DNA from: a virus
Taxonomy: Duplodnaviria; Caudoviricetes
IMG/VR virus record: IMGVR_UViG_3300028833_000057
Coordinates: 1-64,000 of that record
Reading direction: 5' to 3' (one strand)
Length of the DNA: 64,000 nucleotides
Under the pieces are notes generated by a model. The model had not been told where the DNA came from. It saw only the letters and a program-made list of their open reading frames with translations, and ran no database searches. Positions 28,434-62,455 of this stretch are shown in pieces. Made by a program: the position numbers and the translations under genes. Position 1 is the stretch's first letter, and every line of letters starts with the position of its first letter.

Positions 28434-28466
28434 AAACATTATTATGTATAATTATAAGGATATTAT

Positions 28467-28706
28467 ATGAAAATAAATCTTTTAACTTTCATTTTTATTT
28501 TACTTATATCAATTTCATTTACTTTCGCATCAGATATTACAATAAAAATATGCAAAGAAAAGGATTATGATTGTCAATATATTAAATTATCAGATGTAAA
28601 GAAAATAGATAAGATTGCAAATGGCGATATTCTTAGAATTACATTCTATAATGGCAATCAATTAGATATAAATGTATCAAATAAGTATTATGAAATCAAA
28701 AAATAA
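28467..28706 (+). CDS. Small secreted protein
   Basis: Signal peptide ending TFA; AAGGA RBS; late motif AACATTATTATG at 28435-28446. Confidence 0.65.
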   Translation: MKINLLTFIFILLISISFTFASDITIKICKEKDYDCQYIKLSDVKKIDKIANGDILRITFYNGNQLDINVSNKYYEIKK

Positions 28707-28730
28707 AAGAACCATCTGGTTCTTTTATTT
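28701..28730. terminator. Bidirectional terminator
   Basis: aaataaaagaacca/tggttcttttattt between convergent genes. Confidence 0.75.
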
Positions 28731-28731
28731 T

Positions 28732-29973
28732 TTATAATGTTTCAAGGTATGCTTTAGCTAATGCTAAATCATTACGCCATTTCAGATCCTTTGCAGGATT
28801 AAGAATACGACTTACACGTTCATCTTGAATTACGAAACTGATATCTGCACGATCTAAGCAAGTCATTAGATTGGTATCATGACATACAGCTAAGATCTGT
28901 TTATACCGTACAGTACTTCTCCATAACTCAAAGAATTTCTTTGTAACTCGTTCATCAACGTATGAAATGAAATCATCAAAGATATATGTAGCATCATCAT
29001 TACAGGTAAGCATTGCTGCTAATCTTATAGCATTTATCAAACCCTTAGATTCAACTGGAATATCATTCTTTGAAAACTTCAATCTTACGCATTTATATAC
29101 ACTTGAAGTAGTATTGCTAATAATGAAGACACCACGTTTATTGCAGATGATAACATTTACGGAATCACCTTCATAAAATTCCAACACACGTTTAATTTCT
29201 TCTTTATTATCGCCACCATTCATTATAAAGAATTCTTTGCTAGAGCAATCAATCGTATAATAACCGTCAACAGGTATACCTAAATCATTTAAGTTATCCA
29301 TAAGGTTAGGTATGAACATCTCTTCAAGGTTAAGACCTGTTTCAGTTATTACAAAGTTTTCATCATCAATAAATTTTAATGTATTACGCATATACAGATA
29401 TGGCTCAACGATTTCTTCTATTTCGTCATATCCACTAAAGCACGTAATTCTATGTAATAATGTCTCGTCAATATCATTAAAGTATTTAGAGAACCATTTA
29501 CCAAGCTCACCGAAGTCAACGTACAATTTTACATCAGTATAATTTGTACGTGTGTATATCTTGGTAATTTTTCTACGTTTATTATCTTCTGAACGGCACC
29601 ATAGTACTTCACTATAAATACTTCTATCTTTAAGATTCACATCAATTTCATAGTGATACAGTTTTTCATGTGTAGCAAATTCAATTACAAATTCACTAGA
29701 TTCAGATCTATACTGTACACCATCTTTCGGGCCATTGTAATAGTAATCAGTATAACCGTATTTAACTTTACCTTCGCCGCCTAATAGCTCCTTAATGAAT
29801 TTCAAGGCTTCAATAAATGAAGTCTTGCCACTCATATTTTTACCAAAGATCATTGCCATGGAAGTAAGACGACCATCATAATAGACAGAATTTCTATTAT
29901 TTAAGGTGTCTCCAAACCATTCTACTTTATCTTTAAATGGACCAAAATTCTTTACACTTACATACTTAAGCAT
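28732..29973 (-). CDS. AAA_21/RloA(AbiLi)-like ABC-type ATPase
   Basis: VKNF.PFKD, Walker A GKNMSGKTS, ES.G signature, IFDD Walker B, Q.L...HD H-loop. Confidence 0.75.
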   Translation of the reverse strand: MLKYVSVKNFGPFKDKVEWFGDTLNNRNSVYYDGRLTSMAMIFGKNMSGKTSFIEALKFIKELLGGEGKVKYGYTDYYYNGPKDGVQYRSESSEFVIEFATHEKLYHYEIDVNLKDRSIYSEVLWCRSEDNKRRKITKIYTRTNYTDVKLYVDFGELGKWFSKYFNDIDETLLHRITCFSGYDEIEEIVEPYLYMRNTLKFIDDENFVITETGLNLEEMFIPNLMDNLNDLGIPVDGYYTIDCSSKEFFIMNGGDNKEEIKRVLEFYEGDSVNVIICNKRGVFIISNTTSSVYKCVRLKFSKNDIPVESKGLINAIRLAAMLTCNDDATYIFDDFISYVDERVTKKFFELWRSTVRYKQILAVCHDTNLMTCLDRADISFVIQDERVSRILNPAKDLKWRNDLALAKAYLETL

Positions 29974-30262
29974 CAAGCTGCTCCCTTATAACCTTTGGAA
30001 GTTTGTTATACATCTGGGCATAATCATATATTGCTCTCTGTACAAAATTCATTTTGCGAGGTTCAAGACGTTCGCCGCCCATCTTCTCACATAATTTCTT
30101 CTTAATGGCTCTGGTATTTCTACCTTTTAGCTTTCTAAATTCCTTGATTGCTTTACGATTCTTACGTTTGAATCTGGCAGTCATTTCCTTTTCAGCACGT
30201 GCCATTAGAATATTATACAGAATGCTCATATCCATAGCGTTGTTTTGATTTCCATTCTTCAT
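29966..30262 (-). CDS. Basic hypothetical protein
   Basis: 98-aa ORF in an overlapping operon. Confidence 0.6.
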   Translation of the reverse strand: MKNGNQNNAMDMSILYNILMARAEKEMTARFKRKNRKAIKEFRKLKGRNTRAIKKKLCEKMGGERLEPRKMNFVQRAIYDYAQMYNKLPKVIREQLDA

Positions 30263-30800
30263 CTAATACCTCAATGCCAATAGATGAGCCAGATACTGGA
30301 ACTGTGATACAATTCATGGATATAATTCCAACATTAGGTAATTCCCCTAAAATTTTAGAAGGTCTTATACCAATATTGAAATGTGACATGAAATGTTCTG
30401 CATGAACATCTCCCATGAATTCAGTCCGTTCTCTTTCAGAATCTATTACACAATAAAACCAAGTATCAAGATTTGAAAAGCGATTATCAATATCTGCTAA
30501 ATATCTTTTTATTTCAGCAGTATCAGGTTGAGGTCTATTCCAGAAATCATCAAAACTTGGAAGTATCATCATTTTAGGATCGTAATCATCTTCATCTACA
30601 TATGTATTTTCATTTTGTATTACAGCTAACATTTGTTCACATGCAGTATGTACAAATAGCTTGAATACCTTAACAGCCATTTCAAAATTGTCAAAGTTAA
30701 TTATTAATGGCGTCATACCATCAAGCATATTACTTATACTATCCATGTCGAATGTAGTATTACCTGCATACAATGTATATATTTTATTAACTACAGACAT
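30213..30800 (-). CDS. Hypothetical protein
   Basis: 195-aa ORF in the operon. Confidence 0.7.
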   Translation of the reverse strand: MSVVNKIYTLYAGNTTFDMDSISNMLDGMTPLIINFDNFEMAVKVFKLFVHTACEQMLAVIQNENTYVDEDDYDPKMMILPSFDDFWNRPQPDTAEIKRYLADIDNRFSNLDTWFYCVIDSERERTEFMGDVHAEHFMSHFNIGIRPSKILGELPNVGIISMNCITVPVSGSSIGIEVLDEEWKSKQRYGYEHSV

Positions 30801-31062
30801 GATCTAACCCCATAGAAACTGTCATATCCTTTAGGGCATTCATTGTATCGCTATCTATACTTAGATTCTTTATATAATCTATCGCTTGATCATTAGATAT
30901 ATCATCATCAAATGCTAATATATCTGCTGTAAAATCATTACGCTTAGCCATTTTAATTTCCATTTCAACTTCAGTAAAGTTGCTAAAGAAATATGGTTCA
31001 GGCTGAAAGCGTCTTGAGCTAGAACTCCAATACCATTTCTCTGAATTAAATATTATAAACAT
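30787..31062 (-). CDS. Hypothetical protein
   Basis: 91-aa ORF in the operon. Confidence 0.65.
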   Translation of the reverse strand: MFIIFNSEKWYWSSSSRRFQPEPYFFSNFTEVEMEIKMAKRNDFTADILAFDDDISNDQAIDYIKNLSIDSDTMNALKDMTVSMGLDHVCS

Positions 31063-31067
31063 TTCAA

Positions 31068-32000
31068 CTAATCCGTATGTAAAAGGTCAAAACTTGGATC
31101 TAATTTGTCTACATCATTTCTACTGGCTGTAAAATCTGGAAATTCTACTGCTCTGGATGTAAAATATCTATCATTAAATTTATAAATCAACGGTGAATCT
31201 ATCAATTCAAAATTATCTTCATATAAATCATCATCAGTATCAAATTCAGTTTCTTTTACAAGAATCAAAATAGATCCTAATTTGAATCCTTGACCTTTAA
31301 ATGCATGAGCTATACAAATATGTATACCTTCTAGAAAAGCTTTATCAATGCGTGTTAGATCATTATAACCTGGTAACGACTCAAAGTAAGATTCAAATAT
31401 AGAATCAAACAGTTCTGTTGTCCATTTATAAGGATCATATAATACATTAGAAGGTATCAACTCTTTTAAACGAAATCTTTTCTTATTTAGATCATCAATG
31501 ACTCTTCCCATAAACGGTAAACCTGCTTGTGAACTCATACAATCGCAGAGCTCATCATAAATGCGACCTATGCGATTCATTATTCCATTAAGCAGGATAT
31601 CGACTGCTACAGCTATGCTTGTTGTTACTGGACTAAGTAAATGTACTGAATGACAGTCATCATCTCTATTATTTTCAGTTACAAAATATACTTTTTCTTT
31701 AAAGGTGTCTCTTATACCTTTAAAGGCATCTTCTTTCTTCTTTTTCTTATTCTTAGCAGCAACTTTTCTTGCTGTAGTCTTTTTCTTAGTTACTTTTTTA
31801 GTTTTAATGGATCTCGCGACCCTAGAACTCCGTGTAGGCATTTCATCTCCAGAATCTCTTGATGCATTTAATAATGCATTTTGTTCCATAATAGTATTGA
31901 GCGCATCACTGAAGTTAAGCCATTCAGAATCTATCTCATGTCTGAATAGTTCTTCTTCGTGTGATGCGCTCCAATAATCATGATCTTGGTTTCTAGCCAT
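31068..32000 (-). CDS. Hypothetical protein, paralog of 32006-32737
   Basis: Shared L.P.TT, NRI..I, W.TE.F, S.PGY and VEFP motifs; Lys-rich segment. Confidence 0.75.
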   Translation of the reverse strand: MARNQDHDYWSASHEEELFRHEIDSEWLNFSDALNTIMEQNALLNASRDSGDEMPTRSSRVARSIKTKKVTKKKTTARKVAAKNKKKKKEDAFKGIRDTFKEKVYFVTENNRDDDCHSVHLLSPVTTSIAVAVDILLNGIMNRIGRIYDELCDCMSSQAGLPFMGRVIDDLNKKRFRLKELIPSNVLYDPYKWTTELFDSIFESYFESLPGYNDLTRIDKAFLEGIHICIAHAFKGQGFKLGSILILVKETEFDTDDDLYEDNFELIDSPLIYKFNDRYFTSRAVEFPDFTASRNDVDKLDPSFDLLHTD

Positions 32001-32005
32001 AATAA

Positions 32006-32737
32006 TTAGATCTCAATATGACCTAAATCAATATCTGTAGCTAGGTCATTACTATCATGTACAGATATAGTCTTCTGCATCTGTGGGAATTCAACATGAC
32101 TAGTTAAGAAATATTTATTATCAATTTTATTTATCATAGGTATTAATCTAAAACAGGCGTAGTAATCATACAATGGATCATCGCCATCCATAAAATCTGC
32201 AGTAACTTTTACAGTTAATCCAGTTAGATCATTCATTGTAAACATTGTACTATATTTATACGGACGCGAATGATTTCTACTAACGTTAATTTTTATATCG
32301 TCTAAGTAGTCGTAATCTTCTGATGATAAGGATTCATATCCGGGAAATGATTGCCAATACTTATCATATATCTTTTTAAATATTTCCGTATCCCATTTGT
32401 CCATATTATTGTAAACATTTTCAGGCATATAGTCTTGAAACTTTATTCTTGTTTCAAGTAGCGTCTCTAGGAACGTTTGCATTTCTTCGCTTATATCGCC
32501 TTCATAATTATCTACCATTTCTCTAAATATATCCTTTATACGGTTATCTATATTATATAGTATCGTATCCCTTACAATTTCTACATTCGTAGTTAAAGGG
32601 CACAATACATTTACATATACGGAACCATCATCTACAGCATTATCATATACAAGATATAATGCATCTTTAAATAAATTCTTTTTAACTTCTTTTTTGTCTT
32701 CTGTTTGGACTTTTTTCTTAGATTTCTTTGTTGGCAT
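32006..32737 (-). CDS. Hypothetical protein, paralog of 31068-32000
   Basis: Start MPTKK with GGAG RBS; TATATTAA at 32768-32775. Confidence 0.75.
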   Translation of the reverse strand: MPTKKSKKKVQTEDKKEVKKNLFKDALYLVYDNAVDDGSVYVNVLCPLTTNVEIVRDTILYNIDNRIKDIFREMVDNYEGDISEEMQTFLETLLETRIKFQDYMPENVYNNMDKWDTEIFKKIYDKYWQSFPGYESLSSEDYDYLDDIKINVSRNHSRPYKYSTMFTMNDLTGLTVKVTADFMDGDDPLYDYYACFRLIPMINKIDNKYFLTSHVEFPQMQKTISVHDSNDLATDIDLGHIEI

Positions 32738-32767
32738 CTTGTCTCCATGTTTATTCATTTTCTTTAT

Positions 32768-32775
32768 TTAATATA
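32768..32775 (-). promoter_or_regulatory. Putative early promoter TATATTAA
   Basis: Exact motif heading the 28732-32737 operon. Confidence 0.55.
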
Positions 32776-32800
32776 TATTCTTAATATCTAACATTATTAT

Positions 32801-32884
32801 GACGATGCAAAAATCTCCTTGTGTTGTTAGGTTGTTTATCGAATAAATATCCCTTAGCGTAGAAATATGCTAAGGGATATCTTT
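32801..32884 (+). ncRNA. Putative ~85-nt small RNA (late promoter to terminator)
   Basis: AACATTATTATG at 32790-32801; 14-bp hairpin at 32847-32880 with no upstream plus-strand gene to terminate; contains TCTCCTTGTGT. Confidence 0.5.
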
Positions 32885-32902
32885 ATGAATTTTTAAAGCC
32901 AA

Positions 32903-32914
32903 AACAAAGAATTG
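32903..32914 (+). promoter_or_regulatory. Late promoter motif
   Basis: AACAAAGAATTG followed by TATAAA, nearly identical to the 43502 site. Confidence 0.65.
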
Positions 32915-32936
32915 TATAAAATTATATAGGTAGATT

Positions 32937-34259
32937 ATGCAACAGGACTTAACCTTCAAACAAGCGAATATAAGTAGCAGCGCTATCTTAAGTGCTGTAA
33001 CGGGTGAAGTCCGGAGATGGTGGTTAAATCAGTTTCCTGAAAACTATTTTAAGTATATAAGAATAACTTCAGGCGGCACTATCCCGGATATAGAAGGCGA
33101 TGCCGACCGTATGAGGGCTTATAGAAAGAGTAATCCGTGTCTGGCATTAAGACCTAGATTAAAGTTTCAGGAAGACTTAATGGGTGAAGCCTTAAGGAAT
33201 CCGGCACCGTTCTTATATGAGAACATCGGGCCTGACTCCCATTACTATACGCTATATAGAAACGATCAGTTCCTGCAGCGTATAACATTCATGGTTGATT
33301 ACTATAAGATGGAATTCCAAGTTGGGATCCGTGTTGAATCTGAAGTGCAGATGCTGGATGTAATCGGCTTATTGAATAAGCGTATATTCCCTGAGAATTA
33401 CTTCTATATAAATGATTGTCCATTACTTGTAGAGATCCCATCTAATCTTCTATTCAAGACAGCAGAAGACTTAGGACTAAATTTATATAAGCCTGAAGAT
33501 GTAAAAATCTTCCTAGACATCTTACAGCATAATACTACGTATCCTATAGATATAAAGATTAAGAAAGATAGTGGTAAGAAGATAATTGCATTCATTATGC
33601 CTGCAAATATCTTATGCCGTGTTGAAAAATTGCCTGAACCTGATGTTCAGCATGTTAATCGTTCTATAGATAATACGAAAATACAGTTCACAATGACTGC
33701 CCAAGTGCCGTTCCCTAATCTATTTAAGATGTGGACGGAGTTACCGGTACCTATGCCACCTGGCTGGAGTCGGCCTGATGATGGAGATCCAAATAAGCCG
33801 GAACCTCCGTTTGAAACATCTGGTCTAGATAATGGTAGACTCATGATTAACTATGCTTTAACAACTGAACCTCCTCAATATATTAAGGGTACAAGTGCTA
33901 AGCGTATATTCATGAAGAAATTCATTACTGGTACAGATATGGCAGTAGATTATTTATCTCTAGCTGGTATTCTTCCACCTGCTCTAGAAATGTTTATAGA
34001 TCAGATGCTTGAGGAACATAAAAAAGACGTGCTTGAGGAAGCTATCTTATTCAGATTATATAGAGATGAATATTGTGAGCCACCAACGAATTATAAATTT
34101 GATTTCAAGAATAAGACTCTAGAATTATTCTCGCCACTTAGAAATTACATATACCGTGTAGTCATCTATGTGGAAACAACGATACTTCAAAGATACGAAG
34201 CTATTATCAGGGGTATACCTGATCTTCAGCAAGTATTTGATGCGGACATTCTTCAATAG
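32937..34259 (+). CDS. Putative virion structural protein
   Basis: 440 aa, first gene of a late structural operon; function not recognised. Confidence 0.55.
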   Translation: MQQDLTFKQANISSSAILSAVTGEVRRWWLNQFPENYFKYIRITSGGTIPDIEGDADRMRAYRKSNPCLALRPRLKFQEDLMGEALRNPAPFLYENIGPDSHYYTLYRNDQFLQRITFMVDYYKMEFQVGIRVESEVQMLDVIGLLNKRIFPENYFYINDCPLLVEIPSNLLFKTAEDLGLNLYKPEDVKIFLDILQHNTTYPIDIKIKKDSGKKIIAFIMPANILCRVEKLPEPDVQHVNRSIDNTKIQFTMTAQVPFPNLFKMWTELPVPMPPGWSRPDDGDPNKPEPPFETSGLDNGRLMINYALTTEPPQYIKGTSAKRIFMKKFITGTDMAVDYLSLAGILPPALEMFIDQMLEEHKKDVLEEAILFRLYRDEYCEPPTNYKFDFKNKTLELFSPLRNYIYRVVIYVETTILQRYEAIIRGIPDLQQVFDADILQ

Positions 34260-34267
34260 GTTATATA

Positions 34268-36613
34268 ATGACAGCGTTTTATAACAAATACCAGTCATAT
34301 AGACAGTATTTCATAAATCCGAACTATATGCCTTTACAAGAAAGAGCAGAAGCAGAAGACCTGCTGAATCCTAATACGTTAGTTACATCTGCTCTTCTTG
34401 AACAGCGCAATATACTAAGATTTCAAGGTGTACATCCTATACCTGCTAAATATTATATGCACTCTAAGAGTGCTACCCCTATTAGTACATTATTAACTAA
34501 GCTTTCTGAAAATGTAGATTATCAGGCATACTTTGTCCAAGGCTTAGATAATATTGGTGTTGTTACTATTACAGATTTCGACTCATCTATTAATCTCTCG
34601 GATTATCAGCTACTAGTATTTGATAGGAATAATAATGACTTGATTCATTCAGGATTTAGAATTAACGATTTTAAATCTACATTCTGGTATGTAATTAATA
34701 ATACTCTGTATGTTATTCTTATGAATTGCACTAGATATTGCAATGATGAAAATGATTTAACAAGCTTTGCAGATGAAGTTGATGTAGTCTTAATGCGTAA
34801 GGTTAATTGCCGTGATAGCGTTAAGATAGGGTTAATGGAATTTACATTACCTCCTAACGATCCTACAACACAAGTTACTGAAAATGAGTTACCATTTACG
34901 GAATTACAGACATTATATCTTAGATTTGATGAAGTTGGCCCGAAGACCACTATGTTTAATAGATATAATGAAAGATTCTATGGTGTTGCGCTATACTTAT
35001 CTGAGTATGAAGTAGAAATTGGTGACGTTATCTATAACGAACATGATAAAGAGGTAACAGTAACCAGTAATAATATTACTCTGATTAATGATGCTATTAG
35101 ACAGACACATATCAAAAACTGGTTGTTAATAGATCCAAGTAAATATCAGATATCTATTGGTGATAATTGTATTATTGCTGAATGGAATAATATTGCAGAT
35201 GTTGCAGATCTAAATCTCTTTATATATGCTTCTTATAGTGATACTGAAACAGGAACAAGCCTTCCTAGAATGAAGATACCTGTTACCAGATTATATATGA
35301 ATAGTAAATTCTATTTATATAATAAGAATACTTTTATAAAGACTGAATATGAATATAGATATAATCCGGGTGAGGATCATCCTATTATTTCTGTAAGCAG
35401 AGATAATACTACTCCATTAAGAGCTATTGAAGAAAGCTTTAATGTAGTTCGTGATGATGACGATAATATCATAGGTCAATATCCTAATTATATCCCTATG
35501 AATTGGAGTCTTCCTAACGATTTACGTTTAAGTGATGATCCGGATTCACATATCTATGGTAGATGGATTGATACTGAAGATGTATTCGTATTTGTAGATG
35601 GCGTAAAGTTAACGCCATATCTAGATTACGAAGTATCTAATAATGGTTTTATAGGCGAAGATATACCAGCTGGTAGTATCAAGTTCAAGAATAGGAATTC
35701 TAGTGATACTGCGGAAACTTTCCCGGTATTTCCTATATGCCCTGTGGATGAATCTGTAAGTCTTCATACTATATTAGTATTTACTATTCCATCTTCTGTA
35801 CATAGAAATGTATATTATGGCCCATATACTTATGGCGATCATTCAGAATTCGTACATGATATAAGTGAAGAGGTCATGAGTGCTTCTGATTATAAATTTA
35901 AGGATAGTAATGGAGTATATCCAATACTAAATATTGAAGCTGCTACAACTAAAGCTACAGTTTCAATGCTTTCTCCTGAAAATTATATAGTCTTTGCAGC
36001 AGGTAGATATCAAAGAACTGAAGATAATAAGGCTGCTATTGCATTAGATAATGCTCTATATATGAGAGAATTATCAACATATACAAGTATAGAGTATCAC
36101 TCTTACTTTGACGATAGCAAATTATCTTATATAGATAATATGTGGCACAATAATTCTACATATAATCCATTAGCAGAGAAGTTAATTAAGTATTTAACAG
36201 GAGCAGACCCTGAAGATCCTGAATACTTTGATATAGAGAAAACCTATATGATTAATTTCTTAGCTGATAGAGAAGATCCAGAAGAACCAAATAGGATTAC
36301 TGAAGAATCTTCAGAAGCCTATGGTATTCCGACGGACTATATCTACTATGGTGGTTCTACGAATATCTTTGAACTCTGGCTCAAGCATAATACTCGTCTT
36401 GTGTTTAGAAACGATATTGATGCACAGGATGATACTGCTAGACGTAGAGTTCCGGACAAACAGACTTACTTCAGTGCCAATGATGATCTATCTGAAAGAG
36501 GTTATCTGAATAATATTCATGTGTCTGGTAATGATATGCCGGGTATGCCTGAATATACTGCTTCTAATGATATAAATAATGAAGAAGAAACTGAAGACGA
36601 CAATAACGGATAA
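34268..36613 (+). CDS. Putative baseplate/virion structural protein
   Basis: 781 aa, beta-rich, VFVFVDGVKL...DY motif typical of Ig-like baseplate domains. Confidence 0.5.
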   Translation: MTAFYNKYQSYRQYFINPNYMPLQERAEAEDLLNPNTLVTSALLEQRNILRFQGVHPIPAKYYMHSKSATPISTLLTKLSENVDYQAYFVQGLDNIGVVTITDFDSSINLSDYQLLVFDRNNNDLIHSGFRINDFKSTFWYVINNTLYVILMNCTRYCNDENDLTSFADEVDVVLMRKVNCRDSVKIGLMEFTLPPNDPTTQVTENELPFTELQTLYLRFDEVGPKTTMFNRYNERFYGVALYLSEYEVEIGDVIYNEHDKEVTVTSNNITLINDAIRQTHIKNWLLIDPSKYQISIGDNCIIAEWNNIADVADLNLFIYASYSDTETGTSLPRMKIPVTRLYMNSKFYLYNKNTFIKTEYEYRYNPGEDHPIISVSRDNTTPLRAIEESFNVVRDDDDNIIGQYPNYIPMNWSLPNDLRLSDDPDSHIYGRWIDTEDVFVFVDGVKLTPYLDYEVSNNGFIGEDIPAGSIKFKNRNSSDTAETFPVFPICPVDESVSLHTILVFTIPSSVHRNVYYGPYTYGDHSEFVHDISEEVMSASDYKFKDSNGVYPILNIEAATTKATVSMLSPENYIVFAAGRYQRTEDNKAAIALDNALYMRELSTYTSIEYHSYFDDSKLSYIDNMWHNNSTYNPLAEKLIKYLTGADPEDPEYFDIEKTYMINFLADREDPEEPNRITEESSEAYGIPTDYIYYGGSTNIFELWLKHNTRLVFRNDIDAQDDTARRRVPDKQTYFSANDDLSERGYLNNIHVSGNDMPGMPEYTASNDINNEEETEDDNNG

Positions 36614-48218: not shown

Positions 48219-48422
48219 ATGGCAAATATTAGATCAGATAGAGAACTCAAAGAAATGGTCTCTGCTCGTGAAGGAGACTTTAAGAAAATTATTAATAATA
48301 AGATTAAGGCAGGTACAGCAAATCTCTCACCTTCAACTGCCATGAATATTTTGAATACAAAGCTCTCAATGGACTTTTTCGAAGAAATGAATACGGAGGT
48401 GTCTCGTGACAGCGTCCAATAA
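48219..48422 (+). CDS. Hypothetical protein
   Basis: Start moved to MANIRS with GAGGA RBS. Confidence 0.65.
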   Translation: MANIRSDRELKEMVSAREGDFKKIINNKIKAGTANLSPSTAMNILNTKLSMDFFEEMNTEVSRDSVQ

Positions 48423-61828: not shown

Positions 61829-61929
61829 AGTTTTATTCCTTTGCAATTGTTTGTAATAATTATAATTAATACATACAATCTTGCGATTGTACCAGAATTT
61901 AATATATAAATATAAGATTTAAGAAATAA

Positions 61930-62072
61930 AAAAAAAATAGTGGCAAGGAACCAGGGAGAGTTCCTTGCCACTTTGTCCTCGCCATTATAGTGTTGTGGTA
62001 AAATGTGCGTAGGACTTTTTCCAAGGAGCCATCCTTAGAAAACTTTTTAGACTTATTATAAAGTCTATCACA
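61930..62072 (-). ncRNA. Putative ~140-nt four-hairpin small RNA (early promoter to terminator)
   Basis: TATATTAA at 62075-62082; consecutive hairpins; 13-bp terminator at 61939-61972 plus T10; no RBS-supported ORF. Confidence 0.55.
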
Positions 62073-62177
62073 TTTTAATATAATATTAAAACGTATAATA
62101 TTACATTTATATGTTATTCTATAAAACTCAACTAAATATTGTAATGAAGTCTTTTCTTACTTATAAGGCACCCCCAA

Positions 62178-62369
62178 ATGAAACACTATAAATATATGCT
62201 TAATGCAGATTATTTGGTAATAGATATCGAAACGGATGAGATATCTATGGCAGATAGAGACTTTGATAATAAGCTACTATCTGATGATATGGACTATGAA
62301 ACAGAGATGTATGACATCCCAGATCCATGGTTTAGATCTTTCTTTGACAATATTTATGAGTGTACTTAG
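62178..62369 (+). CDS. Small highly acidic protein
   Basis: 63 aa, Asp/Glu-rich; late motif AACTAAATATTG at 62130-62141. Confidence 0.6.
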   Translation: MKHYKYMLNADYLVIDIETDEISMADRDFDNKLLSDDMDYETEMYDIPDPWFRSFFDNIYECT

Positions 62370-62392
62370 CGTAGATTTCCGTAAGAAGATTA

Positions 62393-62455
62393 TATATTAA
62401 GGTTTGGATGAAATAGGATATGGTGTGGTACCATATCCTAAAACAAACATCCAAA
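62393..62455 (+). promoter_or_regulatory. Early promoter TATATTAA plus long 5' leader hairpin
   Basis: tttggatg..taggatatgg/ccatatccta..catccaaa ending at the AAGGAG RBS. Confidence 0.55.

Follow-up and report, generated by a model that had tools for sequence, protein, structure and literature searches.

Trans-acting small RNAs that occlude Shine-Dalgarno (SD) sites with C/U-rich loops are represented in low-GC Gram-positive bacteria by RsaE/RoxS and the streptococcal csRNAs. For the Bacillus jumbo phage AR9, the promoter passages of the published work give an experimentally mapped late consensus, AACA-N6-T-A/G, whose last base is the transcription start site (TSS), together with the early consensus AAATATATATTAT-N6-G, and report that some late promoters drive non-coding antisense RNAs; an anti-SD small RNA is not described in those passages alongside the late antisense transcripts (PMC5312081). 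Of 11 small RNAs detected by ONT-cappable-seq in the giant phage 201phi2-1, eight arise from a terminator lying just downstream of a TSS in a 5'UTR, and one 5'UTR-derived RNA is conserved upstream of a tail gene (PMC11512511). A literature search returned no description of anti-SD RNAs in giant phages.

The virus record considered here comprises 267,826 bp (33% G+C), of which the first 64 kb (64,000 nucleotides) form the window, the whole stretch of DNA that was analysed. Within it a 199-nt gap between diverging genes holds a candidate unit on the plus strand (32790-32894). We put the chances at about even that this locus is a small, protein-less late unit whose RNA of ~85 nt displays an anti-SD loop and likely pairs with SD sequences. 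The divergent setting is as a preliminary description of this DNA had given it, with the minus-strand gene starting at 32737 and the plus-strand gene at 32937. The former has its real start at ATG 32737 with GGAG 5 bases upstream, an arrangement repeated in relatives, while the latter (32937-34259, ribosome site AGGUAG) encodes 440 aa and heads a long series of plus-strand genes, among them those for products of 1,988, 1,534 and 2,129 aa. Pfam and PHROGs gave no informative family for the flanking genes, megablast of 31000-35000 against deposited phages gave no match, a tRNA scan found none and a sigma-70-type promoter scan of the window showed no excess over shuffles. Rfam yielded nothing credible, either across the whole window at gathering score or within 32700-32960 at E up to 10, where the best hit (E = 0.11) fell far below threshold. 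A small protein was considered and rejected: the plus-strand ORF from 32799 has 15 codons in the window and 10 codons of different sequence in relatives, lacks an SD and, with G32801 as the TSS, would be left without a start codon.

Relatives gathered through the neighbouring protein comprise ten contigs with 93-95% amino-acid identity. Four haplotypes are represented, that of the window and the L005, L014 and L018 types; bringing in another six contigs of the 90% protein cluster did not raise this number. In the adjacent gene the window agrees with L005/L014 at 52-54% of four-fold sites, so that neutral sites are close to saturation. In the relatives the gap keeps both flanking promoters, the first bases GAC of the unit, the element AUCUCCUU, the block GUUGUU(U)AGGU and the whole hairpin with its GAAA loop; the spacer between these kept elements has been rewritten, with indels.

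The promoter classes of the phage were found de novo over the whole genome. The early type, TATATTAA-N5-G, is seen 55 times upstream of genes (3.2 expected); its core mostly precedes the start codon by 30-40 nt, and the G follows five bases later. The late type, AC-N5-ATTG(T/A)A, occurs 41 times against 5.4 expected, 20-30 nt before start codons, with an AATG form found 15 times (6.8 expected) and a TATG form that is unenriched (6 against 5.6). Examples of the classes in the window stand at 48219, 43502 and 49516. Short gaps between diverging genes at 159491-159545 and 161183-161248 (G000:C1) contain palindromes such as GACAATATATTGTC, which read as the late motif on both strands and are thus probably bidirectional late promoters.

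Three such elements share the gap studied here. On the minus strand an early-type core TATATTAA (32768-32775, PWM 14.3, predicted +1 at ~32762) serves the minus operon and is conserved in L005, L014 and L018. On the plus strand the late-type promoter AACAAAGAATTG of the 440-aa gene (32903-32914, PWM 17.0) confirms the earlier statement that the next gene has a promoter of its own; it too is retained by L005, L014 and L018, and in L006, L009 and L011 the homologous gene is preceded by a similar AC-N5-ATTG motif. The third, AACATTATTATG (32790-32801, plus strand), is the putative promoter of the candidate unit, with a predicted +1 at G32801. It can be parsed as AACA+TTATTA+T+G, a full match to the AR9 rule AACA-N6-T-A/G; unlike that rule, however, this phage shows a strong preference for A-T at -3/-2; the window site departs from it and has a PWM score of -5.0. 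As had been noted, AACATTATTATG exists in just two copies in the whole 267,826-bp genome, at 28435 and 32790, and the TATG twin at 28435 precedes a small gene at the usual late-leader distance. At the same place the relatives carry the late-type motif AACTTT[A/T]TAATG (AACTTTATAATG in L005), with a PWM score of 13.6.

Beginning at the predicted +1, both the individual folds and the consensus structure predict a 5' stem-loop (32801-32828, plus strand), in which the arms 32801-32810 and 32819-32828 enclose the loop AAAUCUCC (32811-32818). The anti-SD element AUCUCCUU (32813-32820) is identical in all four haplotypes, and the GUUGUU(U)AGGU block (32823-32832), which forms the 3' arm of the stem and the linker, is likewise conserved. 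Seven pairs of the stem are kept in 4/4 haplotypes by way of A/G and C/U changes that face the invariant GUUGUU. CUCCUU is predicted to be unpaired with a mean probability of 0.67 in the window and of 0.88-0.91 in relatives. Folds of the unit reach -31 to -32 kcal/mol (-31.4 for the 92-nt stretch from 32801), with z = -6. The consensus fold has 20 pairs, of which two show compensatory change and five one-sided change with pairing preserved, with one broken cell; the covariation evidence is thin, as the haplotypes number only four and three of these are close to one another. The CGAU/AUCG stem previously proposed to close the loop appears in no MFE or centroid fold and is missing from the relatives.

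In the window, in L005, L014 and L006, and in two further candidate units of the same genome (units B and C, described below), the predicted +1 is the first base of a stem, as against 3 of 53 gene-linked late promoters, and a small late RNA is therefore the most economical reading.

The candidate RNA would end at a terminator-type hairpin (32847-32880, plus strand, GAAA loop at 32862-32865), which is confirmed and comprises 15 pairs (12 Watson-Crick, one G.U and two more). Change across the haplotypes is limited and preserves the stem, with two pairs altered on both sides (A-U to G-C in L014; A-U/U-A). The G.U pair of the window hairpin, A-U in relatives, fits the plus strand only, since its minus-strand counterpart would be a C.A mismatch. 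Read directly from the sequence, an interrupted U-rich tail, CUUUAUGAAUUUUU (32881-32894), follows the stem, and it is because of this interruption of the T-tract that a consensus terminator scan does not call the window hairpin. In relatives UUUUCUUUAU comes directly after the stem; the orthologous hairpins of L005, L014 and L006 are called as terminators, on the plus strand only, and the post-hairpin tail on the minus strand is T-poor in all relatives. No plus-strand gene lies upstream of the hairpin, and a conserved plus-strand terminator in such a position implies plus-strand transcription that starts within the gap. Among 98 perfect hairpins of at least 10 pairs in the genome, nearly all lie just 3' of a gene, and only three, this one included, are situated between diverging genes; of the remaining two, one is purely A + T.

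A second orphan hairpin between diverging genes lies at 61939-61972 (-23 kcal/mol), with a T9 run after it on the minus strand. On that strand (61928-62115) the hairpin is preceded by AACACTATAATG (putative TSS ~61983) and, farther upstream, by AACATATAAATG (putative TSS ~62104), from which candidate RNAs of ~55 or ~177 nt could be made; 61829-62396 is without a convincing ORF.

The hairpin at 32847-32880 could also be an orphaned but useful terminator left at a junction of gene modules. It would once have ended a co-directional gene, as in L006/L011, until the module to the left was replaced by an inverted one, and would have been kept as a recombination cassette or as an insulator shielding the late operon from stray plus-strand or antisense transcription, the stretch before it being functionless. 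Synteny breaks exactly here: the six minus-strand genes to the left (28732-32737) have no homologue in L006, L007, L009 or L011 (relatives at 55-72% identity), which carry co-directional genes instead, including a guanylate kinase, and the gap is therefore a module junction. L007 and L009 also give faint RNA_pol_Rpb1 matches on genes beside the syntenic block, the sole hint here of the multisubunit virion and non-virion RNA polymerases that go with AR9-type late units. A terminator stands at the position of the hairpin in L006, L011 and L019-L021, and in relatives of 67% identity or less the unit is missing or the terminator is present alone. The stem AUCCCUUAG...CUAAGGGAU is moreover common to three hairpins that differ in their loops (32851-32876, 118274-118299 and 239846-239870; G000:C1), and those at 118274 and 239846 are ordinary terminators; the shared stem suggests either copying or recombination of terminators or a stem that is recognized by its sequence. 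A covariance model (R1) built from the unit at 32801+ (unit A) matched, over the whole genome, only the unit itself and these two sites, and its search of more distant loci gave no match. The weakness of the promoter motif in the window also fits a mere terminator. However, such an origin does not account for the retention upstream of AUCUCCUU, of a stem at +1 and of a motif scoring 13.6 despite ~47% neutral divergence, and the nearest plus-strand operon stops 4 kb away at a strong terminator of its own (28698-28733).

It also leaves L006 unexplained. In this relative (72% identity) the upstream gene is a different one and is co-directional, and just past its stop codon stands the promoter-like motif AACAAATTAATG, with a stem starting from the G and UUCUCCUU in a small hairpin loop; next come a strong terminator and, after it, the late promoter that serves the 440-aa homologue. 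We consider a retained terminator unlikely on balance, though a reading to be taken seriously; were it correct, the unit would still mark a recombination junction between gene modules. The conserved terminator, the stem at +1, the element AUCUCCUU, the U-tract confined to the plus strand and the design seen in L006 together favour a real late RNA of ~85 nt. Of the four haplotypes that of the window is the most degenerate, having in its TATG motif the weakest promoter and also the weakest U-tract, and our confidence is for this reason lower for the window than for its relatives.

The position of the unit, always directly upstream of the same gene, raises the question of whether it is a leader or attenuator of the operon headed by the 440-aa gene, in which most transcripts would stop at the hairpin, read-through would be regulated and the short RNA would be a by-product. 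The terminators just after a TSS in 5'UTRs of 201phi2-1 offer a precedent (PMC11512511). Here, however, the separate late promoter at 32903-32914 lies between hairpin and gene, so that the short RNA and the gene are not on one promoter; since this promoter is strong and conserved, read-through is not needed. Furthermore, the sequence shows no obvious alternative pairing of the CUCCUU loop with the AGGUAG ribosome site, and distant relatives have the gene without the unit. An attenuator thus appears improbable to us, and a discrete RNA is preferred.

Read on the minus strand, the anti-SD element becomes AACACAAGGAGAU, near the modal ribosome-binding site of the phage, which would allow the conserved feature to be a ribosome site, AAGGAGAU, either a relic or still live, that has a mini-ORF and a hairpin upstream and belongs to a lost gene or to the leader of the early operon. 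L005, L014 and L018 indeed have an ATG 5 nt further on, followed by an ORF of 4-6 codons, but the window has no ATG there and the length of the mini-ORF varies with the haplotype. To the right of the hairpin, PWM scans of the minus strand matched neither an early- nor a late-type promoter, and the early promoter that serves the minus operon is downstream of the element. The tail after the hairpin is T-poor on this strand, and in L006 both neighbours are on the plus strand. To such a minus-strand element we give very little credence. The polarity of the U-tract and the lack of any such minus-strand promoter match contradict it; the gap unit probably makes a plus-strand regulatory RNA of about 85 bases.

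The preliminary description had gone further and assigned this RNA, together with another at 425-571, to a family with the common seed UCCUUGUGU acting on leaders that contain ACACAAGGA(GA). What stands of that proposal is a gene-less plus-strand unit of late type with a conserved terminator and a displayed anti-SD sequence; the common seed does not. The 9-mer TCCTTGTGT is indeed present at 32816 (+) and 474 (-), but its sharing is at about the level of chance, some 9-mer being common to both RNAs in ~5-5.5% of shuffles of one of them. It has four sites in the genome against an estimated ~1.7 expected; of the other two, one is intragenic and one is the reverse of a real ribosome site. As a seed, UCCUUGUGU (32816-32824) is found in the window haplotype only, with UCCUUAUAG or UCCUUUCUG in relatives; of the region only AUCUCCUU is kept, the GUGU part being AUAG or UCUG in the other three haplotypes. 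Nor is most of the 9-mer exposed in the window RNA as had been supposed, since UUGUGU is predicted to be paired (unpaired probability ~0.01) and only AAAUCUCC is open. The conserved, unpaired C/U-rich seed among the relatives is thus AUCUCCUU, with UUCUCCUU in L006, and does not extend to the longer 9-mer.

The complement ACACAAGGA fares no better as a leader element, occurring in 1 of 318 leaders, and a single gene, 264944-265210 (-), has ACACAAGGAG at its ribosome site. Beyond the 9-mer the two RNAs share nothing, and R1 has no match at 425-571 at E up to 10. The RNA at 425-571 nonetheless has a canonical late motif and a strong terminator, which the proposal could claim in its favour. Largely refuted by the non-conservation of its seed, a family of this kind is in our judgement highly improbable. 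The second locus has features of its own: on the minus strand (425-582) the canonical late motif AACTATAAATTG directly follows the stop codon of gene 603-1058, and a unit of ~140 nt would be closed by a terminator of 12 bp that has a U6 tail. The unit includes an ORF of 26 codons preceded by a weak AAGAG site. Neither the neighbouring protein nor the exact 33-nt pattern of this RNA matched any viral contig. It looks like a good candidate for a late RNA.

The genome does contain other units of the same design, at 267383- (unit B) and 214642- (unit C), in which, as in unit A, a late motif is followed by a stem at +1, CUCCUU and a terminator. A family by design thus exists in the candidate units A, B and C, each with a different extension. 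Leaving aside copies that reverse a real SD, CTCCTT occurs six times in intergenic DNA, and four of the six lie inside promoter-to-terminator units. Over all intergenic DNA such copies are not enriched, with 6 seen against ~6 expected for all copies on both strands.

Unit C (214570-214642, minus strand, G000:C1) has a 13-nt late motif, TAACTAAAAATTG, that is the same as in unit 267383. Its 5' end presents at least 14 contiguous bases complementary to leaders with AAAGGAGCCAU(U/C)AUGG (91911, 131293, 168165 and 187250), the best duplex reaching -34 kcal/mol against -22.5 +/- 1.9 for shuffles. Equally, the unit could be what remains, after decay, of the 5' end of a paralogue on the other strand.

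A possible function is suggested by a difference between the ribosome sites of the two promoter classes. GGAG is found in 32/55 leaders of early type (58%) and in 5/51 of late type (10%; Fisher P = 1.5e-7), while in 34 of the 51 late-type leaders the site reads AAGGA and lacks the final G. The loop region forms duplexes with a mean energy of -10.0 kcal/mol for early leaders and -7.7 kcal/mol for late leaders (P = 1e-4), the better pairing with early leaders being due to their GGAG content. The commonest context of GGAG is GGAGAU and the commonest triplet before AAGGA is ACA, and the sequence AUCUCCUUGU of the window therefore mirrors the modal strong site. Averaged over all 318 leaders the duplex energy is better than in 60 of 60 shuffles, and the best single target is equalled by 2 of 60; these statistics are largely generic because anything containing CUCC pairs with SDs.

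On these grounds we propose the following scheme. The AR9-type late promoter motif would start an RNA at G32801, the 5' stem-loop of which would present AUCUCC(UU), the mirror of the commonest strong ribosome-binding site of the phage (GGAGAU, ACAAGGAG), and the RNA would end at the hairpin 32847-32880, giving a length of ~85 nt. From the conserved promoter, fold and terminator we infer that this RNA is made. It would most likely base-pair with SD regions, preferring those of early GGAG messages to those of late AAGGA messages, and the pairing would turn down early translation late in infection. Since early leaders are GGAG-rich relative to late ones, a masking of early messages late in infection is plausible. 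That the RNA pairs with its targets and that pairing represses we likewise infer, and confidence in repression is lower still than in the discrete late RNA.

Extended to AR9-like giant phages in general, late RNAs with CUCCUU loops (32801+, 267383- and 214642-) might form a timed switch that masks the strong GGAG sites of early messages, so that early proteins would be shut off and ribosomes freed for late messages with their weaker AAGGA sites. We offer this only tentatively and rate it as rather doubtful. The temporal control of giant phages has so far been explained by two RNA polymerases; if the proposal is correct, late small RNAs covering early ribosome sites would bring in a further layer of control, after transcription, and the unequal SD types of early and late genes (58% against 10% GGAG) would acquire a functional meaning.

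The late units of AR9, which are served by its non-virion RNA polymerase, have a consensus that is matched both by 32790-32801 and by the AC-N5-ATTG class of this phage, and the AR9 early consensus resembles TATATTAA-N5-G. With the small RNAs of the giant Pseudomonas phages 201phi2-1 and phiKZ the unit shares its layout, a short stretch from TSS to terminator that lies upstream of structural genes and is conserved in position among related giant phages. Those RNAs, however, have been seen experimentally and are mostly 5'UTR-derived, whereas the present unit is known from its sequence, and here a separate promoter is interposed between terminator and gene. Unlike RsaE/RoxS and the csRNAs, the unit has no Rfam match, is encoded by a phage behind a phage late promoter and has one loop rather than several. 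It nevertheless resembles them in being a short predicted RNA with a pyrimidine-rich anti-SD motif in a hairpin loop and a putative Rho-independent terminator, and by analogy its expected action would be to block 30S binding.
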